Part shown: positions 1-19,997 of the stretch, piece after piece
Layout: every line of letters starts with the position of its first letter
Numbering within the stretch: the first letter of the stretch is position 1
Assembly (NCBI RefSeq): GCF_056712565.1
Contig: NZ_CM160072.1
Length of the DNA stretch: 64,000 nucleotides
Direction: 5' to 3' (one strand)
Notes under the pieces: generated by a model
Told to the model about the DNA's origin: nothing
Seen by the model: the letters and a program-made list of their open reading frames with translations, nothing else
Database searches by the model: none
Made by a program: the position numbers and the translations under genes

Positions 1-357
1 ACCGTCTTTCCGGTTTTCTTCCGACAGACCGAACTGATGCACGCTGGCAATTTTCGGTGACTTCCCGCCGTAAAACTCCATTGATGCCTGTTCCGGGCTG
101 GCGCGGATATGCAAAAAACGACTGGTGATAAGTTTCGCAAACATTTTTCGCTTAACGCGACCGGTCTTTTTTCTGGCGCTCTGCTGCTGGCGTGGTGCGT
201 AGGGTGTGCCGTCCGGGGCTTTCTGTGCCATCACCCGGCGCTGCTGACTCTGCCGCAGACGTTTCGCCAGTTCGGAGCTCAGTCGCCGACGCCCTGACGG
301 TGACAGCGATTCAGTCAGTCCGGTCAGCCGGTCTTCAAAACGCTTAAACTCATTCAT
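1..357 (-). CDS. S: P2 tail completion protein S, N-terminal 119 codons only (3' end lies beyond window start)
   Basis: Own translation of minus strand from ATG at 357-355: MNEFKRFEDRLTGLTESLSPSG...; ATGAATGA overlap with stop of R; not in ORF track because truncated. Confidence 0.7.
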   Translation of the reverse strand, partial: MNEFKRFEDRLTGLTESLSPSGRRRLSSELAKRLRQSQQRRVMAQKAPDGTPYAPRQQQSARKKTGRVKRKMFAKLITSRFLHIRASPEQASMEFYGGKSPKIASVHQFGLSEENRKDG

Positions 358-817
358 CCCACTTACTCACCAGTTCGCCATTGATATAAAGCTCCATCGG
401 GCGGGTGACCGGCTCCGGCGGCGGAGGTTCCGGGATATTCTTCACATGCAGCGCACCGTCAACCTCACTGACCAGCGTGCGCTCGGTCAGCATCAGGCTG
501 ATGCTGATATCAAAGCTGCTGTCATTGTTGATGTCCGCATAAAACGTGAAGCCCTTTTTCTGGCCTTCGTCGGTGGTCATGATGTCGGGCTGATTTTCCC
601 GCAGCCACGCCAGCACCGGCACGATGAGCAGGTCAAAATCACCGGTAAAGTCGGTCACAATGACATTGAGCGTGTAACGCTTTTCGAATGACAGCGACGT
701 CGCCAGTGTGGAGGCAATACTCCCGTTATCCACGAATATCCGCAGCATATCGGGGTTAGTTTTCAGCACCGTGACGGCATCAGTCAGCGCCCTGCGCAGG
801 CTGTCGGGTTTGAGCAT
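350..817 (-). CDS. R: P2 tail completion protein R
   Basis: 155-aa ORF, position between lysis genes and S as in P2. Confidence 0.85.
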   Translation of the reverse strand: MLKPDSLRRALTDAVTVLKTNPDMLRIFVDNGSIASTLATSLSFEKRYTLNVIVTDFTGDFDLLIVPVLAWLRENQPDIMTTDEGQKKGFTFYADINNDSSFDISISLMLTERTLVSEVDGALHVKNIPEPPPPEPVTRPMELYINGELVSKWDE

Positions 818-1070
818 CGTTTTCGTCCTGACAGTGTTTAATCATTTTTACCTGGCTGGCACAGCGTGCCAGCGCGTTCTCAAGCTGCCGGATATCGGCA
901 CTTAAATCGCCGTTCGTCTGCGGGTCACTGCCCGGCATCGGGCAAAGGCTCACTTTCGGGCAGGCGTTGGCGACAATCACTGGCGTCAGTGCAGGCCGGA
1001 CGCTGGTGCAACCGGCGCACAGCATCAGGCAGGTCAGCGCCATACCAGCGGCGAAAATCCTCGTTTTCAT
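780..1070 (-). CDS. lysC: LysC, Rz1-like outer-membrane lipoprotein spanin, embedded out of frame in lysB
   Basis: Internal ATG at 1070 gives 96 aa MKTRIFAAGMALTCLMLCAGC... with lipobox LCAGC; nested in +1 frame within lysB. Confidence 0.6.
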   Translation of the reverse strand: MKTRIFAAGMALTCLMLCAGCTSVRPALTPVIVANACPKVSLCPMPGSDPQTNGDLSADIRQLENALARCASQVKMIKHCQDENDAQTRQPAQGAD

Positions 1071-1350
1071 TAAGTAACCTCGTGATGGTTTTCTCGCGCT
1101 GTGCTTCACGTTTCGCGGCGTTCTCCAGTTCCTGACGCAGTGCCACCTGCGCCAGCTCGTTTTTGTCTGCCCTGGTAAGGGCAACATGAAGCTGGTTTTT
1201 CAGCATGGTGATGGTCGTCTGCTGTTCACTGGCGACGTTGTTCGCCCTGTCCAGCGAGGCGCGCAGGCTGGCATTTTTATGTTTCACCAGAAACAGACCG
1301 GCCACCGCCAGCGATAACAACACGACCAGCACAATCATCAGCTTTGACAT
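925..1350 (-). CDS. lysB: LysB, Rz-like inner-membrane spanin
   Basis: 141 aa, N-terminal TM helix then coiled-coil-like region; P2 position. Confidence 0.8.
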   Translation of the reverse strand: MSKLMIVLVVLLSLAVAGLFLVKHKNASLRASLDRANNVASEQQTTITMLKNQLHVALTRADKNELAQVALRQELENAAKREAQREKTITRLLNENEDFRRWYGADLPDAVRRLHQRPACTDASDCRQRLPESEPLPDAGQ

Positions 1351-1763
1351 AGTTCCCGCCCCTCAAGACGCTGACGACAGGCTTTACGTATCAGCCGGAA
1401 AAACAGCGACGCCACAAGATAAATCAGCGCGGTAAAAATCCACCCGGCAGCGACCAGCGAGATAAACGTCGCCACCATCACCACCAGAGCCGCCGCCCGT
1501 CTGCGCCACGGCACCGGCTGCAAAAACAGCGACGTGACAATCTTCACGGCCAGCGATTCCGGCGGCAGCTCCCGCCCGTAGCGTTCCAGCACATACTCCG
1601 TGGCATACACGCCGACACCACCGGCAACCACACAGATAACCGTCGCCAGAATCGCCCAGGTGGCGACAAAACTGACGGCCACGCTCTGCGGGTAAATCAG
1701 GGACAGTGCCAGCATCAGCGCCAGCGACACGTTCAGCATCAGTGAAAGGGATAATTTCTTCAT
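1338..1763 (-). CDS. lysA: LysA lysis-timing membrane protein
   Basis: 141 aa polytopic hydrophobic protein directly downstream of endolysin K. Confidence 0.8.
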   Translation of the reverse strand: MKKLSLSLMLNVSLALMLALSLIYPQSVAVSFVATWAILATVICVVAGGVGVYATEYVLERYGRELPPESLAVKIVTSLFLQPVPWRRRAAALVVMVATFISLVAAGWIFTALIYLVASLFFRLIRKACRQRLEGRELCQS

Positions 1764-1777
1764 GGTGTTTACTCCGT

Positions 1778-2275
1778 TTAAGCCGGTACGCCGCCAGCGG
1801 TACGCCAGACGGTGACCAGTTTTTCCAGTGAATGCTCACGCTGACCGTAACCGGCACCCGGCAGGGACGCCCAGATATTGCGACAGCGTGAAATGGCGCG
1901 CTCAATACGTCCCGCCCGGACGTCATCCAGTGCACCGCGTTCGCGGATCAACTGAATGGCAAGTCTGTCCTGTGACAACGGACTGAAATCCGGCAGGGCA
2001 AGCTGTTTGCGGTAATGCGGCCAGAACAGGTAAAGCTGCTGATAGCGACCGGAGGCCGTGGATTTTTCACCGCGACGGTTAAACACCTTCGCCGGTCGGC
2101 CATGCGCGAACGGGTGGTCACTGTAGTCGGTGAAAATTTCCGGCTTTCCGTCCAGTCCGGTGACTATCACGTCATAGCCCCGGTTTTTCGTCAGCGGATG
2201 GTTCGCCGTCCCTTCGGACACTGCCAGCATGTCGAGAAAGGCGGCGATATTCTGATGCGTGTTAATTACCGGCAT
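1778..2275 (-). CDS. K: Endolysin (P2 gpK lysozyme-like)
   Basis: 165 aa, start overlaps holin stop (ATGA). Confidence 0.85.
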   Translation of the reverse strand: MPVINTHQNIAAFLDMLAVSEGTANHPLTKNRGYDVIVTGLDGKPEIFTDYSDHPFAHGRPAKVFNRRGEKSTASGRYQQLYLFWPHYRKQLALPDFSPLSQDRLAIQLIRERGALDDVRAGRIERAISRCRNIWASLPGAGYGQREHSLEKLVTVWRTAGGVPA

Positions 2276-2556
2276 TACGGTTTCCCCCTGCCCTTAAAGC
2301 GGCGCTGAATGGCAATCTCAATCACCTGATAACCGGCGATACCCAGCATGGAGCCGATGCCGCACACCGCAGGCAGTGACAGGTCAGGAAACTGCACCAG
2401 AACAACACCGGCAACCATCGAGACAAAACCACCGAGCAACATGCGCCCGATAAACAGACGCGGGGTGATGGGTTCACCACCGGCAAGCACCTTGCCGACA
2501 ACAATCAGCACCCCAATCATGAAAAGCGACAGGACGCTTTTTTCTTCTGCTGTCAT
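2275..2556 (-). CDS. Y: Holin (P2 gpY)
   Basis: 93 aa with hydrophobic TM segments, upstream of endolysin. Confidence 0.85.
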   Translation of the reverse strand: MTAEEKSVLSLFMIGVLIVVGKVLAGGEPITPRLFIGRMLLGGFVSMVAGVVLVQFPDLSLPAVCGIGSMLGIAGYQVIEIAIQRRFKGRGKP

Positions 2557-2559
2557 GCG

Positions 2560-2763
2560 TTACTCCCACAGATTGACAGTTTCAGCCACGGGCGCGGTCT
2601 GAACGTCGGGCAGTTCGACGGCGGAGCCATGTGGCAGCACCGCACCCAGTTCAGCCAGTCCCGGATTTGCGGCGAGCACGGTCTCAACCACGCCCTCAGT
2701 GCGCCCGTAATACCGGACACAAATGGCGTCGAGCGTGTCGCCCTGTAGCGCAAAGGTCTTCAT
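2560..2763 (-). CDS. X: P2 gpX tail protein
   Basis: 67 aa from ATG at 2763 (MKTFALQGDTLDAICVRYYG...), ATGA overlap with L stop. Confidence 0.75.
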   Translation of the reverse strand: MKTFALQGDTLDAICVRYYGRTEGVVETVLAANPGLAELGAVLPHGSAVELPDVQTAPVAETVNLWE

Positions 2764-3272
2764 CAGATTTGACTCACGATGCAGCGCGGCTTGTCCTGGA
2801 TGCGCGCCGCTGCCCAGCGCATATCCCGCCACAGCTCATCAATGGTGCTGTCAATGCTGTCGGCCTTCTTGTCTCCTTTCGCACTGGCATCCACGCCGCG
2901 GTAACGCTCATAAAGCGACGCGGTCGCCATCGCACACACGGCGCGCTCGTAGTAAAAAACTTTGATACTTTCACCGTCGATATCGTCCGCCGGAACGTCC
3001 GCCAGACGCGTAAAACCGGCGGCAATTTTCTGTTCGCGGTACTCGTACAGCTCCGCATTTGTTTCCGCCATGCCTGACTTGATGGCCTCACGCAGACGGG
3101 CGGGGGCGACGGTCTGCTCAAGGCGCATACGTTCCCGGACGCGCTTCGGGTCGATATCGGGAAAAAAGAACGTGTTTTTAATCACCGGCTCGTCGCCTGC
3201 CGGTTGCGGGATGACCACCGTACCCTCACCGGACACGGGAGCCTCCTTTCGCGGAATAATCAGCGTCATCAT
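2763..3272 (-). CDS. L: Head completion/stabilisation protein (P2 gpL)
   Basis: 169 aa from ATG at 3272 (MMTLIIPRKEAPVSGEG...). Confidence 0.85.
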   Translation of the reverse strand: MMTLIIPRKEAPVSGEGTVVIPQPAGDEPVIKNTFFFPDIDPKRVRERMRLEQTVAPARLREAIKSGMAETNAELYEYREQKIAAGFTRLADVPADDIDGESIKVFYYERAVCAMATASLYERYRGVDASAKGDKKADSIDSTIDELWRDMRWAAARIQDKPRCIVSQI

Positions 3273-3371
3273 GACTACCTCTGAAAAGTCGGGCGGTGGA
3301 CGCCGGTGCAGTGTCAGGTGATTCACCCTCACTGACCGGCGTGCCGCCCTGGCGCGGGGCGCATTCGGTTG

Positions 3372-4115
3372 TTAACTGGCTTTCTTTTTCGGGCGTCCAC
3401 GTTTTGCCGGTGTCACGCTCCGGGTCTTACGCGTGGCACGGGTGGCCGCTTTGGGTTGCGGCTCCGGCTTAGGTTTCAGCTCCCGCTCCAGTCGCTCAAT
3501 CTCTTTTTTGACGCCTGCCTGACAGTCGAGCTGTGTCGCACGTTGCAGGTGAGCCAGCGCACCGGCGGCATCACCACCGTCACGCAGAAACAGACCGGTG
3601 ATTTTGTGCAGCTTTGCGCGCACTTCATCAGGCATGTCAGCAGCGGCAGTCAGTTCAAGGGTCTCCGTCAGCAGGCGGGTATCCACAGACTCACCGGCCG
3701 CGTGGGCGCGCATGGCCGCGAGCGCGACCTCCTCGGTGAACATATACGGCGGGGTGCGGCGGTGTTTACCCGGCATGGTCAGACCGTATTTCAGGGCATA
3801 ACGGGCAATCTCCAGCGCACCGGCAATATCGCCGGTATCCAGACGCCACAGCATGACCGTCATCAGAATGTCATCCTGTGCGCCTTTGCCCTGCTCCAGC
3901 ACGCCGTTCACCCACGGCAACCAGAACGGCAGCAGTTCGCGCTTTTTCGCGGCCTTCAGCTCTTTTGAATAAATCGCTTTCAGTGTGCGCTGGTCTGCGG
4001 CCAGCTTGACCAGCATCTGCTCATAGACAGTTGCATGTCGCAGCGGGGCGGCTTCCCGCTGCGCGGTCATCGCTGCCGAGACCCGCATCATGTGGCGCTG
4101 TGCGGGACTCGTCAT
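3372..4115 (-). CDS. M: Terminase small (endonuclease) subunit (P2 gpM)
   Basis: 247 aa, between L and N as in P2. Confidence 0.85.
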   Translation of the reverse strand: MTSPAQRHMMRVSAAMTAQREAAPLRHATVYEQMLVKLAADQRTLKAIYSKELKAAKKRELLPFWLPWVNGVLEQGKGAQDDILMTVMLWRLDTGDIAGALEIARYALKYGLTMPGKHRRTPPYMFTEEVALAAMRAHAAGESVDTRLLTETLELTAAADMPDEVRAKLHKITGLFLRDGGDAAGALAHLQRATQLDCQAGVKKEIERLERELKPKPEPQPKAATRATRKTRSVTPAKRGRPKKKAS

Positions 4116-4118
4116 CGG

Positions 4119-5192
4119 TTACGCTCCCGGCTCTGCGGTCGCCTTAGCCGGTGTGGAGAAATCACCGACCTTAATTTTTTCCACCAGACAACCGGCGGCG
4201 TAGTCTTCCACCACGTAATCAATGTTCATTGACTCGTAGTTCTCCACGCGGTCGAGTTTCGGGTTTTCCACAATCACGCGGCGATGGCTGTCATCCATGT
4301 AGTAGATGGACAGGTTTTCCAGCTTCGTGATGAGCATCGCATCCGCCGGGAAGTACGGGACGCGTACCGCCGGCAGGTTACCGATGCGTTTCTGGCTGAT
4401 GATGACGTCAGCGGCCAGCATTTCGCTGTTGTCCTGCTCCTTGTTAACGATGGGGAAATACTTGTCCGCCAGTAGCTGACGCCCCACAATCACCACAAGG
4501 TCAGGGTCTTCCTGATACCACGGTTCAATCAGGTTGTTGGTCGCATCCATCACCAGTGCATCAAGGCTGGCATAATCACCGCCCTTACCCACGCGGATGA
4601 CCTCAGAGGTCGTGTGACCTTCCTCGTCAGTGACCTTGCTCATCACACGCGCCGGGGCTTCATTGCGGTATTTCTGCAGCCAGCCGACCGCCACATCCTG
4701 CAACATCGGATTACTGTTGCGGTCAGAGGTTTCTGCACGCTTCACGCCGTTAAAACCGGCCATGATGAAATCAAGGGACTGGCGTTTGATAATGGCGTTA
4801 CGGATACGGAGCTGGAAATCCTGATAACGCGCCCACAGGTCCAGCGTTTTGTAGCGGATATAAAAATCGAAGTTAATCTGGTCGCATTCGTACTTGTTAG
4901 ACGCCAGCTTCGAGAAGTCCTTCGGCTGACGCTCGGTGCCACCGGCGGTGTCGGTGGTGCTGGCGATGGAGCCGGTGACACCGATACCAATTTTTTCCCC
5001 TTTCATTTCGCTGACCGGCACAATGTTGATGCGGGTCAGAAAGTCAGAGGACTCCTGCATGGTGTTCATCAGGGTCTGGGTGACCGACGGTTCAACGGTG
5101 AATTTTTTCGACACATCACCGGCGTCGATGCCGTTCAGCTCGGCAACACGGGACAGGTAGGCATTAAATTTAAAGCGGGTTTCCTGGCGCAT
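4119..5192 (-). CDS. N: Major capsid protein (P2 gpN)
   Basis: 357 aa, P2 gpN length and position. Confidence 0.9.
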   Translation of the reverse strand: MRQETRFKFNAYLSRVAELNGIDAGDVSKKFTVEPSVTQTLMNTMQESSDFLTRINIVPVSEMKGEKIGIGVTGSIASTTDTAGGTERQPKDFSKLASNKYECDQINFDFYIRYKTLDLWARYQDFQLRIRNAIIKRQSLDFIMAGFNGVKRAETSDRNSNPMLQDVAVGWLQKYRNEAPARVMSKVTDEEGHTTSEVIRVGKGGDYASLDALVMDATNNLIEPWYQEDPDLVVIVGRQLLADKYFPIVNKEQDNSEMLAADVIISQKRIGNLPAVRVPYFPADAMLITKLENLSIYYMDDSHRRVIVENPKLDRVENYESMNIDYVVEDYAAGCLVEKIKVGDFSTPAKATAEPGA

Positions 5193-5250
5193 AGTTTTTC
5201 CTGAAATTAAGGGTTAATCGTGAAGGTTTTCCCGGACTGACTGACGCCGG

Positions 5251-6105
5251 TCAGCAGTTCGTCATCAGGGCGTCACCGCCACCACCGGTGGCCTTGCTGC
5301 GGCGCTGCTGGGTCAGACTTTCGGTGTGGTCGAGACTGTTTTTCAGGCGGGTGAATGCCTGGCTGGTTTCATCCGCCCTGTCAGTCACCTCCTGCTTAAG
5401 TGCGGAAAAGGCGGTTTCCATCTCAGCGAGGCGCTGCTCAGTGGCGCTCAGTTTTTCCTGCACATGTTCAGCAACAGCGGTCACCGCTTCATGCACGTCA
5501 TTCAGACGGGCATCATCGCTGGCCTGTTTGCGGCCAAAAATGGACTTCACCTTTTCGGTCAGGACGGTGAACACTGTTTCAGGCAGGTCTTCAAATTCCA
5601 GCTCAACAGGCGTTGCCACTGAAATCAGGTTTTCAGGGCTTAATTTGAAGCGGTTCAGGGGGTTGTGTTTTGCCGTGCGGCAGAATTCCAGGTATTCCGT
5701 GCCGAGGCTTGCCGGGTCATCGGTGACGGCCAGACCCACCAGATAACATTTGCCGGTGTTGGCAAAGTTCGGCTGAATTTCCATTGAGGTGTAGACCTTC
5801 TGCGCGGCCTTGTTCATCGCGATAAGGTCATCGGTCGGGGTGATTTTCGCAAACAGCGCCCATTTGCCTTTCAGCGCCGAATCATCGTCAATCTTTTCGG
5901 CCTTAAGTTCGGCCACATCGCCATAACGTTTAAAAATACCGTCAGGCAGGATGCCGCGCAGATGTTCCAGGTTAATGCGGCAACCGTAGACACGCGGGTC
6001 AAAGGTTTCAGCCATTTCCTGAATATCCTGCGCACTGATGACACGCCCGTCACAGGTGTCACCCTCAACGCCGATACGAAAGAATTTTGAGACTTTTTTT
6101 GCCAT
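5251..6105 (-). CDS. O: Capsid scaffolding protein (P2 gpO)
   Basis: 284 aa from ATG at 6105 (MAKKVSKFFRIGVEGDTCDGRV...); ORF track start is further upstream. Confidence 0.85.
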   Translation of the reverse strand: MAKKVSKFFRIGVEGDTCDGRVISAQDIQEMAETFDPRVYGCRINLEHLRGILPDGIFKRYGDVAELKAEKIDDDSALKGKWALFAKITPTDDLIAMNKAAQKVYTSMEIQPNFANTGKCYLVGLAVTDDPASLGTEYLEFCRTAKHNPLNRFKLSPENLISVATPVELEFEDLPETVFTVLTEKVKSIFGRKQASDDARLNDVHEAVTAVAEHVQEKLSATEQRLAEMETAFSALKQEVTDRADETSQAFTRLKNSLDHTESLTQQRRSKATGGGGDALMTNC

Positions 6106-6278
6106 TGTCAGGAGTCCTGAATAGTGATTAGAGGAGTCACATGTCGGCATCAGTTTCCCGACGATGCGCATCCTCCGCCATCAGTCCCGGATGGCTTATC
6201 ACTGACACAACAGCACCTTAGCGAATCGCAGGGCGCGACTCAGTAGCCTTGCCGTGTATTCATCACGGCGAGGTATTC
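6106..6278. promoter_or_regulatory. Divergent late-promoter region between O and P (P2 PO/PP, Ogr-activated in P2)
   Basis: Position only; a clean TGT-N12-ACA activator site could not be identified by eye. Confidence 0.35.
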
Positions 6279-9085: not shown

Positions 9086-9090
9086 ACATC

Positions 9091-9112
9091 GCCGCCTGCG
9101 GGCGGCTTTTTT
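9091..9112 (+). terminator. Rho-independent terminator after Q
   Basis: GCCGCC-tgcg-GGCGGC hairpin followed by TTTTTT. Confidence 0.7.
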
Positions 9113-9254
9113 ACACCCCGTCATCACGCCCTCACACGCTCACCACCGCACAAAACACCCCGCAGACACACCAGCGCCTCAACGGGCAGACTAAGCGCCG
9201 TCACGACGCGCTGAGACGCTGAAAAAATAAAATCAGCACCACCGCCAGCGCGCA

Positions 9255-9273
9255 GTGCTTTCCCCGCCTCGCC
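9255..9273. other. P2 cos site (19-nt cohesive-end sequence)
   Basis: gtgctttccccgcctcgcc is the reverse complement of GGCGAGGCGGGGAAAGCAC, the P2 cohesive end as I recall it; about 170 nt downstream of Q as in P2. Confidence 0.6.
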
Positions 9274-9466
9274 CGCCCGCTTCATGGGGCGGTTTTAATG
9301 CAGTTGCATGATGAAACTGAAATCACATCAGCACTGACCGAAACTGACAAAAAGAATAGTATCTGACACATGCAAAAACACGCACTTAATATACGCCTAT
9401 CTATAGCTCCTACAGGATTGTCAAAAAACGACCAACTCGTCATAGCGTAAACACATTTGGCTCAAC

Positions 9467-9565
9467 GAACACTTACGTTATATGCCTCTTGAACATATCA
9501 AAGTCTTAAGGTAGATCTTTACCACTAAGTGGCTATATTAAGCTGCTTTTTTACATACAATAAAA
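9467..9565 (+). promoter_or_regulatory. Putative promoter region of the cargo gene (AT-rich; candidate -10 TATATT 9534-9539 or TACAAT 9556-9561)
   Basis: AT-rich upstream region with -10-like hexamers; no convincing -35; SD GAGG at 9578-9581. Confidence 0.25.
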
Positions 9566-9588
9566 GCTTTATCGTATGAGGCATAAAA

Positions 9589-11805
9589 ATGGAACTTAGA
9601 TTAAAAAATGTTACCAGTTATAAGAAAGACGCCTTCACAATACTGAATCTTGAAAAAAGAGTAAACATACTATACGGCCAAAATGGTTGTGGCAAATCTA
9701 CCATTTCAAATTATTTCTACGACTCTACACACACAGATTATAACGAGTGTGAATGTACCCTTCTTGACAATTACAAACCTCTTGTTTACAACACTAAATT
9801 TATTGAAGATAACTTCTATAATGCACAGGAACAAAAAGGTGTTTTTACATTAAGTAAAGAAAATGCAGATATTGAAAAACAATTAATTGAAAAAGAAGCA
9901 ATTAAACAGCAACTCACAGAGCAATATAGACAAAAAAAAGGAGTGTTATTGAAATTAGAAGCAGAAATGGAAAAAAAAGAAAATGAATACATCGAATCGA
10001 TCTGGAAAAAAACAGAACCAATCAGAAACTCTGTACTAAAAACCTTAATGAAAGGTAAAGTTGGCTATAAAAGACCTTTTTTTGAGATGATAAAATCATC
10101 CTCACCAATCACCTTTATTAATTTAAATGATATAGCAAAAGAATACTCTATACTATTAGAAAATAGAAACAATGAAACCGCATTAATAACTCCTTTACAT
10201 CCATATACCCCATCAATTGATGATGTAAATACATTAGCAACACCTATAATAGATACAAGCAATAGCTATTTATCAGAAACCATTAATAAACTTCATAATC
10301 TTGACTGGGTAAAAAAAGGTAAAGAACATTATTTAGACGGTTCTACATGTCCGTTTTGTCAGGAAAAAACTATTAGTCACGAATTTTTAAATGCCCTTAA
10401 ATCAATATTTGACGAAAGTTATTCAAAGAAAGTAAAACAGCTCTCAGATATAAAGTCAGTTTATGAGAAAAATACCATATATCATTTTAACGAAATACAA
10501 AACAATATATCATCATGTGCACTAATCAATGAGAAAGATAAAGAGAACATTATTTCCAATATTAAAATATTGCAAAACATTGCAGAAAAAAATTTAATAA
10601 ACATTATTGATAAGATCAACAATCCATCAACATGCGTTACATTAGAAATTGATAAAGAACTAGAAAATCATGTTCAGGAAAGCATAGGCGCTGTTAACAA
10701 GAAAATAAGAGACATAAATGATAAGGTTAAAAAACTCAAAGAGTATGAGAATAAAATCGGAAAACAAGTTTGGGGGGCTCTCCATGCTTTTTGCAGCGAT
10801 GATTTAGAGAATTTATCCAAACACAAAGAAAAATTCTTTGATATCAAAAAGAAAGTTCATGATGAATTAAATAATATTGAGCAACAAGGAAAAGAAAATA
10901 ATCTCACAATAAAAGCATTGCGAGATAAAATATCTAACATTGATTCTACGATAGACTCAATAAACACCCATTTAAAAAATCTAGGGATCTCTGGTTTTTG
11001 TATTGAAAAACATGCAGAAAGAAAAGATATGTACATTATATCTCGACCAGGGCATACAAAAAACCAAAATGTTTATAGATCTCTTAGCGAAGGTGAAAAA
11101 ACACTAATAACGTTTCTTTATTTTTTAGAGTGCTGTAAAGGTAAAACCGATAAAAATGATACCGATAGCAGGGATATTTTTATTGTTATTGACGATCCAA
11201 TATCTAGTCTATCGCAAAACTATGTCTACGACATCGCATCAATTATTCATCACCACATTATAAAAAATGAATTAACAAAGAAGGTATTAATCCTTACTCA
11301 CAATCTTTATTTCTTTCATGAACTTATTAAGCTATCTCCTAAAAGCAGAGAAGACAAACTATTTAAGAAAAACTATTATCTAGGTAGAGTAACGAAAAAT
11401 GATTTTAGTATAATTACTGAAATACAAAAAAACAGCATACAGAATGAATATCAATCTTTGTGGCAAATATTAAAAGATGCAAAAGATGGCAAAGCAAACA
11501 AAATCATAATACCGAATATTATGAGAAACATACTAGAATATTATTTTGCATTTGTTCATAGAACAGATGCTCTACAAGATGAATTAACAAAGTTGGCACG
11601 CGACGATAGCAACAGTGATTTCAAAGCATTCTACAGATACATTAACAGAGGTTCTCACTCTGATGCGGTAAATATTACTGATATGGGCGACATAGACCCA
11701 GATAAATACCTAAAACAATTGAGAACAATATTTTCAGCTACTGGTGACGAAATGCATTATTTAAAAATGATGGACGAACTAGAAGAGGAAAACGTTACCG
11801 CTTAG
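9589..11805 (+). CDS. ABC-type ATPase with coiled-coil/zinc-hook insertion and C-terminal effector-like domain; RloC/PrrC-like candidate anticodon nuclease (stand-alone defence gene)
   Basis: 738-aa ORF; Walker A GQNGCGKST, CPFC in a K/E/N-rich insert, LSEGEK signature, IFIVIDDP Walker B, LILTHN H-loop, C-terminal RNILE...H; strongly AT-rich relative to flanking prophage; sits in the P2 cos-A accessory position. Confidence 0.55.
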   Translation: MELRLKNVTSYKKDAFTILNLEKRVNILYGQNGCGKSTISNYFYDSTHTDYNECECTLLDNYKPLVYNTKFIEDNFYNAQEQKGVFTLSKENADIEKQLIEKEAIKQQLTEQYRQKKGVLLKLEAEMEKKENEYIESIWKKTEPIRNSVLKTLMKGKVGYKRPFFEMIKSSSPITFINLNDIAKEYSILLENRNNETALITPLHPYTPSIDDVNTLATPIIDTSNSYLSETINKLHNLDWVKKGKEHYLDGSTCPFCQEKTISHEFLNALKSIFDESYSKKVKQLSDIKSVYEKNTIYHFNEIQNNISSCALINEKDKENIISNIKILQNIAEKNLINIIDKINNPSTCVTLEIDKELENHVQESIGAVNKKIRDINDKVKKLKEYENKIGKQVWGALHAFCSDDLENLSKHKEKFFDIKKKVHDELNNIEQQGKENNLTIKALRDKISNIDSTIDSINTHLKNLGISGFCIEKHAERKDMYIISRPGHTKNQNVYRSLSEGEKTLITFLYFLECCKGKTDKNDTDSRDIFIVIDDPISSLSQNYVYDIASIIHHHIIKNELTKKVLILTHNLYFFHELIKLSPKSREDKLFKKNYYLGRVTKNDFSIITEIQKNSIQNEYQSLWQILKDAKDGKANKIIIPNIMRNILEYYFAFVHRTDALQDELTKLARDDSNSDFKAFYRYINRGSHSDAVNITDMGDIDPDKYLKQLRTIFSATGDEMHYLKMMDELEEENVTA

Positions 11806-11833
11806 GCCGCATATTATCGTTTTGGGTAAGAAC

Positions 11834-11853
11834 GACGGTGCTTACGCACCGTC
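11834..11853. terminator. Hairpin downstream of cargo gene (possible weak or bidirectional terminator)
   Basis: GACGGTGC-ttac-GCACCGTC perfect 8-bp stem; no clear T-run. Confidence 0.3.
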
Positions 11854-12028
11854 TCCCAACGCCCAAAGCGGTAGCGGTTGTACTGGCGTACATTCACTAG
11901 CTTTAACATGAGGCAATCTCCATGCCAGCACTATTGTTGCCAATAGCAGCCTTTATACCCTTTGTACAAAGCTAATACCAAGAGTAATGCAAAGTAGATG
12001 TCCCAAGCGGTAACGGGGCTATTCTATG

Positions 12029-14320
12029 TCAAACACAGAAAAAATCAAAGCGCCCTATGAATCCCCCCCAACCATCAGCGACCGGATACGTGAATTTTTT
12101 CCCGTCATAATTTACGGTCGCTCCACGCGCCAGCGCCTCAAGCTCCCATCGCTGCGGCATGATACCGTTCTGAGCAAGGTCAACGCGGATACGGGTGATT
12201 TGCAATCGTTCAGACCTGGTCAGTCTGGCAGATGGTGCAATTTCATGCGGTTTTAACGGGCTTCCGTTTCTTTGCTGACGGTTTGGCGTTCTCAGGTCGT
12301 ATTTTAATGCGCCCCTGAGCGCCCTCACGACCTCCGGTTCATTCCATTCAATAACACCGTCATCAACCAGATTAAGCACTGCTGCGGCGTGCTCAGAAGG
12401 TGTGGGAGCCGGTAACGAAGTATCACCACCGGTGAGCTTTCCACAGTTATTGACAGGACTCCGAGGCGCGGCGATGCCGCTTTTTAAAGTCAAAGGCTCA
12501 ACGACCGGAACTTTCGGCACAATGCGCCAGTCCGTCGTTCTGGTGATATGAATATGACGCGCGCCGAGATGCGGCGCGTAAATGCCGACCACTCTCTCGA
12601 CTTCTTCCTCGTACTCGTTAACGTCATCCGACGGGCTACGGGCAACCCTGACAGTCTGACAATCGCGCGGGACATTTGCCCCACCCTGCGCGCTGATATA
12701 CAACGCAAAATCACCACTGTCTGCGGCAGCGCGAGCAGCCTCGACGCGTTCGTCAAACTCATCAGCAATACTGACGCCGCGAGGCAATTTGCGTAGTTCA
12801 CGGTAAGCCCCCATTGTCGGCAGGCCAACCGTTTTAAATTGCGGAATTCGCCACGTTGACGCCCATGCGGTAACAGCCGCAGCAGTATCTTTCAGCGGCC
12901 TGCCGGTATCATTATCGAGCTGACCATCCAGTGCATAGCCATCGATGTTTTTTGAGATGTATTTTGCGATATACCCCGCAGCACCGCCCCGGTTAAGATG
13001 TTTTGCCTGAAAACGGTTTCGCGCGGCTCCTCTTTCGTCGCCATCCTCTTTGAGCGCATAGCGACGCATGATTTCGATAATCTGGTTACGCTGGCGTGGA
13101 TTACAAAAAAGCATCATATGCCAGTGCGGCGTTCCGTCGTGGTGTGGCTCGACGACACGCAAACCGTAGACCTGTAAATCATTATCCTTGAATGCCGTGC
13201 GCATCAGGCTCCAGATATGGCAGAGATAACGCTGCGCATCCTTTGGATTAAATGCCTCATCGTTCCAGCCGTGATTTAGCTGGACGGTTTTACTTTCGCC
13301 TTTTCCGACCTGACGTGTCGGGTGATACTTTGACGGCGCGGTAAGCGTGATAAACATCCCCACATCACCCTCTGCGGCGGCGTAACGCTCAATACCGGCA
13401 ATGGTGTTCATCAGCTCCATCCGGCGAATTTCAGGATTAGAAATACTGCCCATCACCTTACTGATAAGGTCGATGCGTTCGCCGGTTTCCCTGTTTTCAA
13501 GGTCACACGATTTAAGAAATTCCAGATTTGCCTGGCGGCGTGCACGCACATCACGAATGGCATGTTTACTGGCATAAGGTGAACGGTCTTTATTGACCTC
13601 CCCGACAGCAATCAGTAACGCCTCATGCCAGCGCATACGCTGGCCTTTAAGCTGACTAATCCACCACTCATCGTTAAACAGGCGGGCAATGGCAGAATAT
13701 GCCTGCCTCGTGGTCATCTGTCCTTTACGGTATTTTTTCCAGTAGAGCGGGGAAATATTGAAAGCACGTGCAGCGCCAGCAACATGACCATAGAGGTGAG
13801 CCTGCGCCTCATCCGTAAACAGCGATTCTTTTTCGCCATGCGCATCCACCCAGGCATCGCAGAGTTCCTCATACATCATGAAAAGCTGCGATGAGATACG
13901 GGCGGCAAACTTTTTCAGCTCCTTATCATTCATCCCCGGCAGACGCGCATAATGGTCACGCTCTGCCAGAAACAGCAACGACGCGTCGGTGTTCATTTCA
14001 TGGCGCTGATTCACACGCTCAATGCGCGGCCATAAACGACGCTGAAAAGTGGATGTGAGGAAATAAAACCCGTGCACCGGGCTTTTATTGCGCCGGATGT
14101 AGTCATAGCGTGAAGTAAACAGCGAGCGCAAAAAGTAAGGCAGGCGGTTAATCGTGGATAAAACACCTTGCACCTGACGCATCTCGTCACGTGTAAGGGG
14201 TCTTTCGCGCCCGACGGCCTCGCGTGGCGCGTTCCATGCATAAGCACCGGTAAACGTCTTACCGGTGCCTGCGGTAAATGCTGACGGAGGGACAAAACGC
14301 CCGGAGGCTTTAACGGCCAT
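12029..14320 (-). CDS. A: Replication initiation (rolling-circle nicking) protein (P2 gpA)
   Basis: Long ORF; start taken at ATG 14320 (MAVKASGRFVPPSAF...) rather than the ORF-track start at 14362. Confidence 0.9.
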   Translation of the reverse strand: MAVKASGRFVPPSAFTAGTGKTFTGAYAWNAPREAVGRERPLTRDEMRQVQGVLSTINRLPYFLRSLFTSRYDYIRRNKSPVHGFYFLTSTFQRRLWPRIERVNQRHEMNTDASLLFLAERDHYARLPGMNDKELKKFAARISSQLFMMYEELCDAWVDAHGEKESLFTDEAQAHLYGHVAGAARAFNISPLYWKKYRKGQMTTRQAYSAIARLFNDEWWISQLKGQRMRWHEALLIAVGEVNKDRSPYASKHAIRDVRARRQANLEFLKSCDLENRETGERIDLISKVMGSISNPEIRRMELMNTIAGIERYAAAEGDVGMFITLTAPSKYHPTRQVGKGESKTVQLNHGWNDEAFNPKDAQRYLCHIWSLMRTAFKDNDLQVYGLRVVEPHHDGTPHWHMMLFCNPRQRNQIIEIMRRYALKEDGDERGAARNRFQAKHLNRGGAAGYIAKYISKNIDGYALDGQLDNDTGRPLKDTAAAVTAWASTWRIPQFKTVGLPTMGAYRELRKLPRGVSIADEFDERVEAARAAADSGDFALYISAQGGANVPRDCQTVRVARSPSDDVNEYEEEVERVVGIYAPHLGARHIHITRTTDWRIVPKVPVVEPLTLKSGIAAPRSPVNNCGKLTGGDTSLPAPTPSEHAAAVLNLVDDGVIEWNEPEVVRALRGALKYDLRTPNRQQRNGSPLKPHEIAPSARLTRSERLQITRIRVDLAQNGIMPQRWELEALARGATVNYDGKKFTYPVADGWGGFIGRFDFFCV

Positions 14321-14585
14321 ATGAGCCAAAAGCCTCTGAACAACGCTTGCTGAGTTGCTCAACCTGCGCGTTTAAATCAGCAAAAGACTTTGCGCTTCCG
14401 GTCAGAATATCGTGATGCATCAGGCCGGAAACGAGCTGGCTTAATTTCGGGTAATAACCAACCACCGCCAGCCATTCCTGACCGGCGTTTTTACCGCTTT
14501 CCGCTCTCTTTTTCTCGTGGAGAATAAACTGAAAGCTGTCACTGGTAACGACATAACGTTCGCCAATTTCAATACGAATACTCAT
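14310..14585 (-). CDS. P2 early-operon small protein (orf80-83 family)
   Basis: 91-aa ORF immediately upstream of A. Confidence 0.6.
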   Translation of the reverse strand: MSIRIEIGERYVVTSDSFQFILHEKKRAESGKNAGQEWLAVVGYYPKLSQLVSGLMHHDILTGSAKSFADLNAQVEQLSKRCSEAFGSYGR

Positions 14586-14806
14586 GCCGTTCTCCGGTAA
14601 TGTTTGTTTTTTGCTTCAAAGACTGACTGACAGGAAACACAACGCGTGGCTGACGGATAAGCCGCACGACGGGCAGCAGGTATTGGCGCGTCACACTCTT
14701 CGCAAACCAGCGCAGAAGCACCGCAATGTTTTACCCTTGCCGCGTTAATCTGGCGCTCCAGTAATTCAGCCTGTTGTTCCTGAATAAAATCTACGTTGTC
14801 CGGCAT
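14582..14806 (-). CDS. TraR/DksA-type C4 zinc-finger protein of the P2 early operon
   Basis: 74 aa with C-x2-C ... C-x2-C (CEEC ... CVSC). Confidence 0.7.
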   Translation of the reverse strand: MPDNVDFIQEQQAELLERQINAARVKHCGASALVCEECDAPIPAARRAAYPSATRCVSCQSVFEAKNKHYRRTA

Positions 14807-14808
14807 TA

Positions 14809-15111
14809 TCAGCTCCTTTTATCGTTAAGTTTCCTGGATACATCAGCGCAATAACTGGCAAGTTCTGTCGTTAATTTTGTCAGTTCATCCACTGAGGAAA
14901 TTTGCTTGTGGAATACAGCGCGTTTAACAAGTAAATTGACCACATCAGACAGGAGGTTTAATTCATTCTGATAAATCGCGATAACAGATTCAGTGATGTC
15001 GCGTTTTTCTTTATCAAGACAAAGTTGAATAAGAGACAAATCGCCATTTTTCATAACGGCGATTTTTAAGGCGTTATTCAGTAATACAACTGAATGAGAA
15101 CAGGACATCAA
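14809..15111 (-). CDS. P2 early-operon small protein, hypothetical
   Basis: 100-aa ORF, tightly packed in early operon. Confidence 0.6.
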
Positions 15112-15332
15112 AGTACCTCCCCGCGAGACAATCCGATATTGTGAAATTTTTCCGACTCCTGACTGAGCAGCTCGACTATCTCCACGCGGGATAACTCCGC
15201 CTTTGTGATATGGCGAATCATGGCGTCAAGATGAGAAGAAAAGCGCGTCGCAGCGTCGGCCTGTGCTTCGGTTCTGGCCTGTTGCAGCAGTAATGCGTAT
15301 TTACCGCACTGATTTTCAGAAACTGTATGCAT
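15108..15332 (-). CDS. P2 early-operon small protein, hypothetical
   Basis: 74-aa ORF, overlapping stop/start with neighbour. Confidence 0.6.
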
Positions 15333-15395
15333 GACTTTCTCCGGGCAAAAAGAAGCCCCGCACGATTAAGCGCGTTAAAAACTCTGGTTAATTAC

Positions 15396-15902
15396 TTAAT
15401 GCAGATATTGCTCTGGTTTTACCGACGTCAGAATTGTCGGTGCATACTCAAACAGACTGAATAATTCACGTAATGCACGGAATAAAGCATCACGCCAGTA
15501 ACATGATTCCTCATTAATTCGCCAGTATGGCTGGTTAAATTCTTTTTCTGTCAGTCGTGCGTGCATAAATAAAGTGCGACGCTGACTGACTGTTAAAAAA
15601 CTAATATATGCATACTCACTTGCGCCAACCTGACGGCGTTTTGAGAATGCCCCACGCAACTCATCAATTGCACATACCAGTCGTTCACGTTCGACGTCGT
15701 TCATTTCTTCAAAACGCATCGTTGCGTGACGCTGTTTTAACTGCGCATGAAAGCAAACCGTTAGCCGTTCGCGCTCCATCATCTGATTATAATAATCACA
15801 TGTATCCTGCCAGCGAGGAACGGCAAGATGCTTACCAATTATCCGGCGCATAGCTGCTGGCTGTTTTTCAACGAGATTGAGCGTCATCACTGTCATTTCC
15901 AT
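15396..15902 (-). CDS. B: Replication protein B
   Basis: 168-aa ORF (possible real start at 15896, MTVMTLNL...); P2 position between cox and the small ORFs. Confidence 0.8.
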   Translation of the reverse strand: MEMTVMTLNLVEKQPAAMRRIIGKHLAVPRWQDTCDYYNQMMERERLTVCFHAQLKQRHATMRFEEMNDVERERLVCAIDELRGAFSKRRQVGASEYAYISFLTVSQRRTLFMHARLTEKEFNQPYWRINEESCYWRDALFRALRELFSLFEYAPTILTSVKPEQYLH

Positions 15903-16063
15903 ACCCTCCGGCTTTTCAGAAAGGTCAGAGCCTTTTTTAACGGACTCTGTTTTTTGGTGCGGATAATGATTCCCTTACGCCCCTTACCGTGGGTGATGGT
16001 GAAGTCAATCGCCCTGGGGCTTTCGTTACGCAATAACTGAGCAATACAACGAGGCTCGTTCAT
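15893..16063 (-). CDS. P2 orf78-like small protein
   Basis: 56 aa from ATG 16063 preceded by AAGGAG; lies between cox and B. Confidence 0.5.
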   Translation of the reverse strand: MNEPRCIAQLLRNESPRAIDFTITHGKGRKGIIIRTKKQSPLKKALTFLKSRRVWK

Positions 16064-16073
16064 ACGGTTCTCC

Positions 16074-16349
16074 TTAACGTGGTTCACCGAGACCTAACCA
16101 CATCAACCAGCCGTCACGAATCTCTTTAGGGCGGCTTTCATAAGCCAGTTTTAGTCCGTTATTCCATGCCGGAAGGTATACCCAATATTCACCTGCACGA
16201 CCTGAAGCTGATTGTGGATCGGTCATATCAATTACAGGCAGCTTTCCTTTATCGATCATCCGACGAACCGCTCCTGTCGATTTTCCTATTAGTTTTGCGA
16301 ACTCCTGATAAGGAATCGCATCAGTCATGAGTGTTACTTGCTTGCTCAT
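16074..16349 (-). CDS. cox: Cox (excisionase / transcriptional regulator)
   Basis: 91 aa, divergent from C. Confidence 0.85.
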   Translation of the reverse strand: MSKQVTLMTDAIPYQEFAKLIGKSTGAVRRMIDKGKLPVIDMTDPQSASGRAGEYWVYLPAWNNGLKLAYESRPKEIRDGWLMWLGLGEPR

Positions 16350-16463
16350 GTCGTCCCCCAGCCCTCATGAATTGCGTTTAATGCCTTATAATGCCTTTTA
16401 GTGCCCACATCCAAGCACTAAACAATCTACATCTAAACTAAATACCATTGAGATCTAAACACC
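16350..16463. promoter_or_regulatory. P2 immunity switch: Pe/Pc promoter region with two direct-repeat operator half-sites ATCTAAAC (16431-16438 and 16453-16460)
   Basis: Two identical 8-mers spaced 22 bp between divergent cox and C; TATAAT at 16386-16391. Confidence 0.5.
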
Positions 16464-16763
16464 ATGTCAAACACGATAAGCGAGAAGATAGTCTTAATGC
16501 GAAAATCAGAGTATTTGAGCAGACAACAACTTGCTGATTTAACAGGGGTTCCGTATGGCACGCTGAGTTACTATGAAAGTGGTCGTTCAACACCTCCAAC
16601 AGATGTCATGATGAACATCCTGCAGACCCCACAATTCACCAAATACACTTTATGGTTCATGACCAATCAGGTCGCTCCTGAGTCCGGGCAAATTGCGCCC
16701 GCTCTCGCACACTTTGGGCAAAACGAAACAACGTCGCCCCACTCCGGTCAAAAGACTGGTTAA
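16464..16763 (+). CDS. C: Immunity repressor C
   Basis: 99 aa MSNTISEKIVLMRKSEYLSRQQLADLTGVPYGTLSYYESG..., helix-turn-helix. Confidence 0.9.
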   Translation: MSNTISEKIVLMRKSEYLSRQQLADLTGVPYGTLSYYESGRSTPPTDVMMNILQTPQFTKYTLWFMTNQVAPESGQIAPALAHFGQNETTSPHSGQKTG

Positions 16764-16878
16764 CAATTTATCGTGAATATATTCATCACAAGTGCCTACT
16801 ATTGGTGGCTAAATTTCAGCCACCACGAAAAAAGCGATTAGTAGTAGCAAAAAAAAGTACCACTCGGAGGGTTTTCTG

Positions 16879-17892
16879 ATGGCAATCAAAAAACTCGATG
16901 ATGGTCGATATGAAGTGGACATCCGCCCTACTGGACGTAACGGAAAACGCATCCGTAGGAAGTTTGATAAGAAAAGCGAAGCTGTCGCTTTCGAAAAATA
17001 CACGTTGTACAACCACCACAATAAAGAATGGCTATCAAAACCAACAGACAAACGACGTCTGTCGGAACTGACACAGATCTGGTGGGATTTAAAGGGTAAA
17101 CACGAAGAGCATGGGAAATCTAATCTTGGAAAAATTGAAATCTTCACAAAAATAACGAATGACCCATGCGCATTTCAAATCACGAAATCCCTTATCAGCC
17201 AGTACTGCGCCACCCGAAGAAGCCAGGGTATTAAACCTTCGAGTATCAATCGTGATTTAACATGTATTAGCGGCATGTTTACAGCCCTGATTGAAGCGGA
17301 GTTATTCTTTGGTGAGCACCCTATCAGAGGGACAAAGAGGCTTAAGGAGGAAAAACCAGAAACAGGCTATCTCACACAGGAAGAAATTGCCTTACTGCTT
17401 GCAGCACTTGACGGCGACAATAAAAAGATTGCGATTCTTTGCCTGAGTACAGGAGCACGTTGGGGAGAAGCAGCTCGTTTGAAAGCAGAAAATATCATCC
17501 ATAACCGCGTCACGTTTGTTAAAACGAAAACAAACAAACCACGCACCGTCCCGATTTCAGAGGCTGTTGCCAAAATGATCGCGGATAACAAACGAGGTTT
17601 TTTATTCCCTGATGCTGATTACCCTCGCTTCAGACGAACAATGAAAGCAATAAAACCGGATTTGCCAATGGGGCAAGCCACACATGCACTAAGGCACAGC
17701 TTTGCCACTCATTTCATGATTAATGGAGGAAGTATTATCACGCTACAACGGATACTAGGTCACACGCGGATTGAGCAAACTATGGTTTACGCTCATTTTG
17801 CGCCAGAGTACCTTCAGGACGCCATTTCTCTTAATCCGCTAAGAGGTGGTACTGAGGCCGAGAGTGTCCACACAGTGTCCACAGTAGAGTAA
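16879..17892 (+). CDS. int: Tyrosine integrase
   Basis: 337 aa with C-terminal R...H-x-x-R...Y catalytic signature (HALRHSFATH ... MVYAHF). Confidence 0.95.
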   Translation: MAIKKLDDGRYEVDIRPTGRNGKRIRRKFDKKSEAVAFEKYTLYNHHNKEWLSKPTDKRRLSELTQIWWDLKGKHEEHGKSNLGKIEIFTKITNDPCAFQITKSLISQYCATRRSQGIKPSSINRDLTCISGMFTALIEAELFFGEHPIRGTKRLKEEKPETGYLTQEEIALLLAALDGDNKKIAILCLSTGARWGEAARLKAENIIHNRVTFVKTKTNKPRTVPISEAVAKMIADNKRGFLFPDADYPRFRRTMKAIKPDLPMGQATHALRHSFATHFMINGGSIITLQRILGHTRIEQTMVYAHFAPEYLQDAISLNPLRGGTEAESVHTVSTVE

Positions 17893-17971
17893 CGTTTAAG
17901 GGCTTTCAGTGGTAATTTATGCCGCTCAAACCCGCATTGTACCGTTGAAAGCCCCTACTGGTGACACCCTA

Positions 17972-17998
17972 AATCTCCCTTACACGGGCTTATTTTTT
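17972..17998. other. P2 att core (prophage end, int-proximal)
   Basis: aatctcccttacacgggcttatttttt is the reverse complement of the 27-nt P2 core AAAAAATAAGCCCGTGTAAGGGAGATT as I recall it; 80 nt downstream of int. Confidence 0.55.
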
Positions 17999-18326
17999 AT
18001 GCATAAGCCCTATCCCTGGTCACCGTCTTCCATTGACCACATCGATAGAATCCTCCTTCATAGCACGATGCTTTTCACTTATCGACATCGTGCTCGCACA
18101 GGTTCCGGTTACGCACAGCCAGAACGCGCATGTTTGACGCTTACCAAAAAATGAACCTAAAGCATTGGAACATTTTTGACATCATTTTCTGATGGCTGCA
18201 TAAAATAAAAATTCTGCTTTAGTTTCATCTATCTGTTTGTCATTATTACTCACATTCAATAATGGTGTTGAAGAATATCCCATCACAGATAAAATAAATA
18301 TGTGCATGGTAGTCTTGAATCTATTC

Positions 18327-18644
18327 TCACTCTCCACATTTGAATGTCAGACGAGCGACGCCATGTAATCCTGCACCTTCTGTCTTCAGGTCAACTATCT
18401 GCATTTTTTTGCCCTGAGTAACACAGAAATGAACTGCATCATTTTTTACTATATTTTCTGCACCAGATATTCTACCCCTGGCTAAAGAAGCTTCGGCTTC
18501 GGTGTAGTATTGGTTATCGAGTTTACGCTGAATATTACTTTTATATGCAAGACCAAATTTACCGATACTTGTCTCATCATTATGTACAGCACACCCAGAC
18601 ATAAGAAAAACACTAATTAATGATATAGCAGCTATCTTTTTCAT
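18327..18644 (-). CDS. yegR: Lipoprotein YegR
   Basis: 105 aa from ATG 18644 with SD; signal peptide and lipobox MSGC. Confidence 0.6.
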   Translation of the reverse strand: MKKIAAISLISVFLMSGCAVHNDETSIGKFGLAYKSNIQRKLDNQYYTEAEASLARGRISGAENIVKNDAVHFCVTQGKKMQIVDLKTEGAGLHGVARLTFKCGE

Positions 18645-19959: not shown

Positions 19960-19997
19960 TAAAACTATTCTCTGTTGAACCAGAGAGAATCCGTAAT

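Follow-up and report, generated by a model that had tools for sequence, protein, structure and literature searches.

A P2-type prophage at the cyaR/yegQ-yegR locus with P2 immunity determinants, a putative RloC-like accessory gene and two rare alleles that question its viability

Does a prophage that resembles P2 in almost every gene still represent a functional phage, and what is carried in the interval between its cos site and gene A? These questions are raised by a stretch of 64,000 nucleotides (nt) from contig NZ_CM160072.1 of the assembly GCF_056712565.1, which as a whole is called the window here, and in particular by its positions 1-17998, in which an earlier note made from the sequence alone had seen a near-canonical and perhaps functional P2 prophage. 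We regard it as highly probable that this interval represents the int-proximal 18 kb of an approximately 33-kb P2-type prophage (genus Peduovirus) at the classic integration site, together with the explanation of its immunity, cargo and rare alleles given below. The prophage as such is ordinary and of the P2 type, and the finding offers little novelty; its added value lies in a pair of rare mutations that question viability and in the availability of the same element in the type strain.

The relation to P2 is evident at several levels. In a megablast comparison of window 1-18000 with 50,697 phage records, matches were obtained to P2-family phages only, 95 records showing 95-99% identity. Against P2 itself (NC_001895), blastn aligned window 1-9273 with P2 9271-1 at 97.75% identity and with two one-base gaps, both of which fall in the non-coding cos-Q spacer; window 9255-9302 corresponds to P2 33593-33546 and spans the joined cohesive ends (cos), and window 12059-17999 corresponds without any gap to P2 30295-24355 at 97.96% identity. 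The orientation is inverted with regard to the P2 map: gene S comes first, followed by cos, the genes of the early region and int, and finally by the attachment (att) core. Only positions 9303-12058 of window 1-17998 remained without P2 alignment. The P2 gene order is kept throughout, with Q-P diverging from O-N-M-L-X-Y-K-lysA-lysB-lysC-R-S, and cox-orf78-B-orf80-83-A facing C-int. According to tblastn and the tracing of open reading frames (ORFs), the P2 ATG start and the exact P2 length are found for R, lysC, lysB, lysA, K, Y, X, L, M, N, O, P and Q as well as for orf83, orf82, orf80, B, orf78, cox, C and int on the early side. Among the 23 complete P2 genes of the interval, departures in length are limited to orf81, which encodes 99 instead of 100 amino acids (aa), and to A (763 instead of 761 aa), the last 13 residues of which diverge and form a new C-terminal tail.

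Amino-acid identity to P2 ranges from 89 to 100% and reaches 100% for Int, Cox, Orf78, Orf82 and Y. The 13,119 nt of collinear coding sequence differ from P2 at 254 nt and only 45 aa, hence, judged from these sequences, the divergence of the backbone from P2 is under purifying selection. The collinearity with P2 proposed in the earlier note was borne out by alignment to the P2 reference, which gave high identity over the backbone (97.7-98.0% over the aligned 15.2 kb, with 9303-12058 as sole unaligned part). Its statement that every P2 gene is full length is correct for the backbone; however, the interval lacks orf91, tin and old, orf81 is one residue shorter and A ends in a new tail.

The cis-acting sites and the determinants of immunity correspond to those of P2. 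The 19-nt cohesive-end sequence of the P2/P4 type (GGCGAGGCGGGGAAAGCAC, 9255..9273, minus strand) lies between Q and the accessory slot and is an exact match to P2 cosL/cosR. The spacer with the divergent late promoters pO/pP and the Ogr activator site (6106..6278) shows one substitution in 173 nt relative to P2 2994-3166, namely at P2 3042 and outside the annotated activator site 3057-3087. The nick site of the replication origin (ori) is located at window 12462 within 45 nt identical to P2, and the segment P2 24355-24600, in which the Int P' arm and the sites for Cox are located, has no difference in the window. The gene int (16879..17892, plus strand) encodes a 337-aa integrase identical to P2 Int; cox (16074-16349, minus strand) is likewise 100% identical at the protein level. 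The immunity repressor C (16464..16763, plus strand, 99 aa) shares 98 of 99 residues with P2 C, I70V being the sole difference. In the Pe/Pc switch (16350..16470, reaching 7 nt into the coding start of C), both 8-bp direct-repeat operators (GTTTAGAT; O1 at 16453-16460, O2 at 16431-16438) flank the Pe -10 element (16442-16447) and are identical to P2, while the Pe -35 hexamer TTGACA (16465-16470), the 17-bp spacer and the Pc hexamers are unchanged. The earlier note had called the repressor, the cos 19-mer and the att core essentially P2-identical and the P2-type immunity intact, and both statements agree with these data, the core matching at 27 of 27 positions.

It is well supported by these identities that the prophage belongs to the P2 immunity class, and immunity of the lysogen to P2 is a well-founded expectation. 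By analogy with P2 biology, Pc would drive C and int in the lysogen, and C would bind both operators flanking the Pe -10 element, so that cox-B-A would be silenced and the cell immune to phages of P2 immunity; a lysogen of this class would exclude P2, whereas heteroimmune and vir phages would not be excluded. Another peduovirus immunity class was considered, because most phage matches end at window 16064, and the element could accordingly be seen as a 186-, Wphi- or 720R8-like immunity and integration class sharing merely the late genes of P2. The only phage record reaching position 18000, vB_EcoM-720R8, indeed has an unrelated C-cox intergenic region; however, the ungapped 98% alignment with NC_001895 extends from A over C and int up to the att core, C is conserved in 98 of 99 residues, Int and Cox are fully identical, and the operators are the same, which rules this class out and leaves such an origin with a practically negligible probability.

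The integration site is equally typical. The int-side att core (AAAAAATAAGCCCGTGTAAGGGAGATT, 17972..17998, minus strand) represents the junction between prophage and host and is identical to the P2 attP core. Homology to P2 ends at 17999, and host DNA begins at 18000 with yegR next to the core, followed by yegS, a gene for a DeoR-family regulator, the gat operon and further genes up to the yeh genes and btsSR. The junction represents the yegR side of the cyaR/yegQ-yegR locus, which in K-12 reads trhP(yegQ)-cyaR-[ogrK, yegZ]-yegR. We take this locus to be the P2 preferred site locI. This site was reportedly described by Barreiro and Haggard-Ljungquist in 1992. P2 Int presumably inserted the prophage at this classic preferred site between yegR and cyaR/yegQ.

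The 27-bp core also matches the annotated 3' end of the K-12 small RNA gene cyaR. The K-12 remnant PR-X begins inside this annotated 3' end (cyaR corresponds to 4115-4201 of the K-12 segment L006), so that the terminator of cyaR apparently overlaps with the att core of P2. Only the int-side copy of the core is located in the window; the body of cyaR lies outside, at the ogr end. A scan of window 1-20000 with Rfam models at gathering thresholds and with ARAGORN found neither non-coding RNAs nor transfer RNA (tRNA) genes. Further downstream in the host flank, yehI, yehK and yehM are annotated by RefSeq as frameshifted pseudogenes in the nearly identical host region of strain SF-468, corresponding to window positions of about 45,000-55,500.

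Because the window ends in gene S, the left part of the prophage was read from two proxy genomes, SF-468 and Z0117EC0054. SF-468 differs from the window at none of 20325 overlapping prophage positions and in the 46-kb host part by four mismatches and a gap of 1 nt, so that it is not the exact source of the window. For Z0117EC0054, identity is 100% in both segments compared, window 1-22000 and 24000-48000, and among the genomes listed in both searches it was the only one to reach the top bit score for each segment. Both proxies show the leftward order V, W, J, I, H, G, a replaced Z/fun slot, FI, FII, E, T, U, D, ogr and a second core. This second core at the ogr end (AAAAAATAAGCCtGcGTAAGGGAGATT) adjoins yegQ and matches at 25 of 27 positions. 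Its two host-type differences would fit a crossover within the first 12 bp, and they would also change two pairs of the predicted cyaR terminator stem. The proxies support the view that the prophage is gene-complete with both ends present, and the leftward extension suggested in the earlier note led to all tail genes, ogr and the second att core next to yegQ.

The proxy prophage also reveals where the likeness to P2 is weaker, since orf30 is absent, the C-terminal part of the tail-fibre protein H is different and G is only 89% identical to P2. The Z/fun slot, the second P2 hotspot between G and FI (26596-28529 of the SF-468 segment L003), contains genes for a DUF5677 protein, a short tyrosine recombinase (194 aa) and a hypothetical protein of 125 aa, which may form another defence cassette. 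The earlier impression that only the cos-A interval deviates from P2 is correct inside the window; beyond it, however, orf30 is missing and the H C-terminus and Z/fun have been replaced. The similarity of the whole prophage to P2 was roughly estimated from SF-468 at about 76%, i.e. about 25.3 kb of identical positions in 33.3 kb, with individual segments being 81-98% identical. Since this value is below the approximately 95% over full length that delimit the species Peduovirus P2, the element is assigned at the genus level, as a P2-like prophage with P2 immunity and not as P2 itself; the term near-canonical fits its backbone but not its whole genome.

The interval without P2 alignment represents a cargo island (9303..12058, plus strand), whose GC content of 28-30% contrasts with 51-61% in the backbone. 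It replaces the last codons of A as well as orf91 and the exclusion genes tin and old (the latter for an ABC ATPase with TOPRIM), which in P2 lie between A and cos; tblastn found no match for Orf91, Tin or Old in window 1-20000. Of 5426 complete E. coli genomes, 41 carry the island at 99-100% identity, and it was found in none of the phage records apart from a partial match of 79% in an Enterobacter phage. It contains one real gene, located at 9589..11805 on the plus strand and encoding 738 aa; the search for a second gene in the island gave spurious small ORFs only. Two ORFs of 53 aa on the minus strand (window 9124-9443) overlap cos and the cargo leader and are probably spurious as well; one of them is annotated as hypothetical in vB_EcoM-720R8. 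A consensus scan of 9080-12100 for a cargo promoter remained at chance level (13 sites compared to 11.5 expected), so that none could be named, while the same scan recovered the Q terminator hairpin at 9091-9106.

The cargo protein, annotated as WP_000423308 in SF-468, matches the Pfam family AAA_13 from end to end (2e-111) and the PADLOC model PDC-S06 (1e-254), whereas the PADLOC model for PrrC matches aa 490-730 with E = 1e-12. No NCBIfam model names the protein. Homologues with 52-65% identity are spread across Enterobacterales, and full-length relatives at 27-32% identity are labelled 'wobble nucleotide-excising tRNase' by their sources. RloC itself is reportedly such a wobble-nucleotide-excising tRNase, activated by DNA damage or phage infection, and is said to have been introduced by Davidov and Kaufmann in 2008 and to belong to COG4694. 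Residue conservation was evaluated in a 32-sequence alignment of the cargo homologues. The motifs of an ATP-binding cassette (ABC) head, i.e. GQNGCGKST at aa 30-38 (Walker A), LSEGE at 499-503 (signature), VIDDP at 533-537 (Walker B) and TH at 570-571 (H-loop), are invariant across the 32 homologues. Invariant residues are K36, C254/C257, E501-E503, D535/D536, H571 and R646, while E650, S689 and H690 are near-invariant (at least 90% conserved), giving the C-terminal motifs R646-x3-E650 and S689-H690 with the Arg/Glu/His triad of a PrrC-type nuclease domain.

The region of aa 90-465 (about 370 aa) is predicted to be mostly helical, with C254-P-F-C257 in a predicted loop between helices. In an AlphaFold2 model with a mean predicted local distance difference test score (pLDDT) of 82, the ABC head is split and the insert forms a long helical part, and Foldseek matches the model with Rad50/SMC heads with coiled coils. 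Searches of PDB sequences with the protein and with the 32-sequence profile found no RloC or PrrC structure, only weak matches to ABC heads and coiled coils. Collectively, the sequence motifs and the model point to the architecture of RloC, namely an ABC head, a CxxC-bearing helical insert as putative zinc hook and PrrC-type nuclease motifs at the C-terminus. By analogy, the cargo product is most likely a stand-alone anticodon nuclease (tRNase) of the abortive-infection type that would be restrained by an ATPase/coiled-coil sensor. The single RloC-like gene in the cos-proximal accessory slot would then provide an abortive-infection tRNase expressed from the prophage.

This cargo is already catalogued and not new. 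In the supplement of Rousset et al. 2022 (PMC9122126), WP_000423308 appears repeatedly in Table S5A as a P2-hotspot arrangement, and Table S5B gives 'AAA_13' as the fifth most frequent hotspot system with 420 occurrences and the note 'RloC-like'. The hypothetical protein WP_077461969, which is paired with it in this supplement, is absent from the current RefSeq annotation. The P2 defence hotspot has also been described in PMC9519451. The cos-A cargo, which the earlier note singled out as conspicuous, is indeed the sole deviating interval in the window, but its content is unremarkable, because the slot is a known P2 defence hotspot and the exact protein is listed there.

The backbone itself draws attention at the switch region between C and cox. 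These 114 nt contain four A>G changes compared to P2 (P2 25908, 25970, 25995 and 25997; window 16357-16446). Two of them alter the Shine-Dalgarno region of cox from AGAGGA to GGGGGA, and the change at P2 25908 (window 16446) converts the Pe -10 hexamer from TAGTAT to TGGTAT. In sigma-70 promoters, no base is more critical than the A at the second position of the -10 element. All six distinct P2-immunity phage records have A at all four positions. The 61-mer around Pe was found in 395 complete E. coli genomes, 276 of them being identical to P2 and only 18 showing the window allele, the same number as the genomes that carry this prophage at 99.5% identity or more to window 1-22000. In strain OkiPb01715 the cargo is located 4.4 kb from the exact P2 61-mer, so the cargo occurs with the canonical Pe, too. 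Because Pe and Pc face each other, weakening of Pe would shift the balance towards Pc, C and a stable lysogenic state.

A second rare allele was found in the essential sheath gene FI of the proxies, which read AATTATAAGG (SF-468, L003 30040-30092; Z0117EC0054, L005 10340-10390) where P2 has AATTAAGG. The 2-nt insertion removes the FI stop codon and adds 14 aa, so that the reading frame runs into the FII start. Among 1545 genomes that contain this FI/FII junction, 15 show the insertion, and it is missing from all 74 phage records. Four strains with the identical window part are not among the 15 genomes that match the FI 71-mer at 99% or more, hence the change in Pe may have arisen before that in FI. 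The earlier note had named a truncated or frameshifted essential gene outside the window as the observation that would speak against it; the FI stop loss comes close to this, although no gene is truncated.

Is the prophage still functional, as had been thought possible? Its gene-complete state speaks for this view, while the Pe -10 change and the FI stop loss seen in the proxies make it doubtful. Neither change proves a defect; however, two rare lineage-private changes at critical positions may mean that the prophage is attenuated or locked in lysogeny. If both alleles were neutral, the element would be a fully viable temperate P2-type phage that excises, replicates, packages and lyses, a reading that we keep as a tentative possibility. 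It would explain the strong synonymous bias, the full length of all genes with conserved starts, and the unchanged cos, ori, Int/Cox/integration host factor (IHF) arm region and late-promoter activator site; even at Pe, the -35 hexamer and the spacer are unaltered, and through the A>G change TATTTA is now preceded by a TG motif. It is less easily reconciled with a G at the critical -10 base that is absent from the six P2-immunity phage records and 377 of 395 genomes, with a stop loss missing from all phage records and restricted to so few genomes, and with the confinement of both alleles to one clonal prophage lineage showing no sign of horizontal spread.

With about even chances, the element has been grounded only recently, i.e. 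it is defective or strongly attenuated and kept vertically, supplying C immunity and the RloC-like gene but no infectious particles. The two lineage-private changes at functionally critical positions would be in line with such a fate, and the 22-kb sequence, which a dozen or more isolates from humans, poultry and dogs share without any difference, argues for clonal descent rather than transfer. Moreover, relatives have been hit further, by an ISEc12 insertion in DSM 30083 and possibly by a split of the cargo gene in two strains. Nevertheless, no gene is truncated, the four strains with the same window part are outside the 15 genomes with the FI allele, P2 is naturally non-inducible so that low release is normal, and a sheath tail of 14 aa may be harmless. 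A more specific scenario, in which the Pe promoter-down change, a less effective ribosome-binding site of cox and the lost stop codon of the sheath gene together lock the prophage in while the immunity and RloC-like module is retained, appears rather unlikely to us. If it were true, the lock-in would represent an early and datable step of domestication in which the switch promoter was hit first rather than a structural gene.

Several points weigh against the combined picture of a P2-type prophage that carries an RloC-like tRNase and is hampered by its two rare alleles. The sequence TGgTATTTA that results from the A>G change could serve as an extended -10 element in a shifted position, therefore the activity of Pe is not judgeable from sequence alone, and the effect ascribed to the change draws on general knowledge of sigma-70 promoters. 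The FI extension may be tolerated, and its observation comes from the proxy genomes. With regard to the cargo, PDC-S06 is treated as a PADLOC prediction in bioRxiv 10.1101/2025.01.08.631966 and is still a candidate defence gene. In the supplement tables of PMC9122126 that were searched, AAA_13 appears only in locus lists, PARIS HHpred results and tables of other species, and these tables give no sign that the AAA_13 system was assayed for defence.

Full identity (100%) to window 1-22000 is seen in about a dozen complete genomes, and 18 reach 99.5% or more. This clonal prophage lineage belongs to O1/O2:K1:H7 strains of extraintestinal and avian pathogenic E. coli (APEC), with human isolates from blood and cerebrospinal fluid and one isolate from a dog, and to the type strain DSM 30083. 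Deviations of this segment were noted for NZ_CP033092 (DSM 30083) and NZ_AP043894. In the type strain, an ISEc12 element of the IS21 family splits the match in two and lengthens it by 2.6 kb. In both UID2404240036 and APEC E18055, the match covers two entries named 'AAA family ATPase', possibly because the cargo gene is split there. APEC O1 (NC_008563) has the identical cargo at 0.93 Mb and the yeh/gat host region at 2.29 Mb; its prophage does not lie beside this host flank, pointing to a different integration site or a large rearrangement.

P2-like prophages are common, since the FI/FII junction was found in 1545 of 5426 complete E. coli genomes, i.e. in more than a quarter. Judged from its immunity region, the lysogen is expected to resist phages of P2 immunity, which is relevant for phage work on extraintestinal pathogenic E. 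coli (ExPEC) and APEC of the sequence type 95 (ST95) group, and it may abort other phages via the putative RloC-like tRNase. The type strain (DSM 30083 = ATCC 11775) with the same element offers an accessible system for the question of PDC-S06/RloC-like hotspot defence, and the two private mutations provide a small case of incipient prophage domestication.

The remaining features of the interval follow the P2 pattern. On the minus strand, the window begins within the tail completion gene S (1..357), of which the N-terminal 119 of 150 codons are present before the window edge (97.5% identity to P2 gpS aa 1-119 in tblastn), followed by the tail completion gene R (350..817, 155 aa, 98.7% aa identity). 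The lysis timing/spanin group comprises lysC (780-1070, 91.7%), lysB (925-1350, 97.2%) and lysA (1338-1763, 95.7%), all full length like the genes for the endolysin K (1778-2275, 99.4%), the holin Y (2275-2556, 100%), X (2560-2763, 98.5%), the head completion protein L (2763-3272, 98.8%), the small terminase M (3372-4115, 98.8%), the major capsid protein N (4119-5192, 99.2%) and the scaffold O (5251-6105, 99.6%). The full-length genes for the large terminase P (6279-8051, 99.8%) and the portal Q (8051-9085, 98.5%) are located on the plus strand. Beyond the island, the minus strand encodes the replication initiator and nickase A (12029..14320; 98.3% over aa 1-754, with the C-terminal tail replaced), orf83 (14310-14585, 98.9%), orf82 (14582-14806, 100%), orf81 (14809-15108, 88.9%), orf80 (15108-15332, 98.6%), B (15396-15896, 98.8%) and orf78 (15893-16063, 100%).

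Compared to known systems, P2 (NC_001895/AF063097) has the same gene order, cos 19-mer, attP core, Int, Cox and operators as this prophage, but differs in the window by orf91-tin-old in place of the RloC-like gene, by the A tail and by the four A>G positions of the switch; outside the window, the proxies lack orf30, have a replaced H C-terminus and Z/fun region and have lost the FI stop. The cryptic K-12 prophage PR-X (ogrK, yegZ) occupies the same attachment locus with the same ogr-side junction next to cyaR; however, it retains only ogr and a D fragment, whereas the whole prophage is present here. The best-covering phage record, vB_EcoM-720R8 (ON470606), matches 83% of the query at 97.1% identity and even includes yegR/yegS flanks, but its C-cox regulatory region and the content of its hotspot are different, and its FI has the normal length of 1191 nt.

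Regarding the cargo, the ABC ATPase head and the long helical insert with the invariant CxxC are traits of RloC, and the C-terminal R-x3-E...S-H motifs are shared with RloC and PrrC. To the Geobacillus RloC, on which studies exist, the protein is only distantly related, and a corresponding activity would be assigned by homology. PrrC has about 400 aa without a coiled-coil insert and is encoded in the locus of a type Ic restriction-modification system (hsd/EcoprrI); in contrast, the cargo protein has 738 aa with a helical insert of about 370 aa, and its gene is flanked by P2 Q and A without adjacent hsd genes, which sets it apart from PrrC. The closest counterpart is the P2 hotspot system number 5, 'AAA_13, RloC-like', which according to PMC9122126 occupies the same slot between gpA and gpQ. 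Its representative there is a different homologous allele that diverges from the first residues, in a family whose members related to the cargo protein are 57-65% identical to it.

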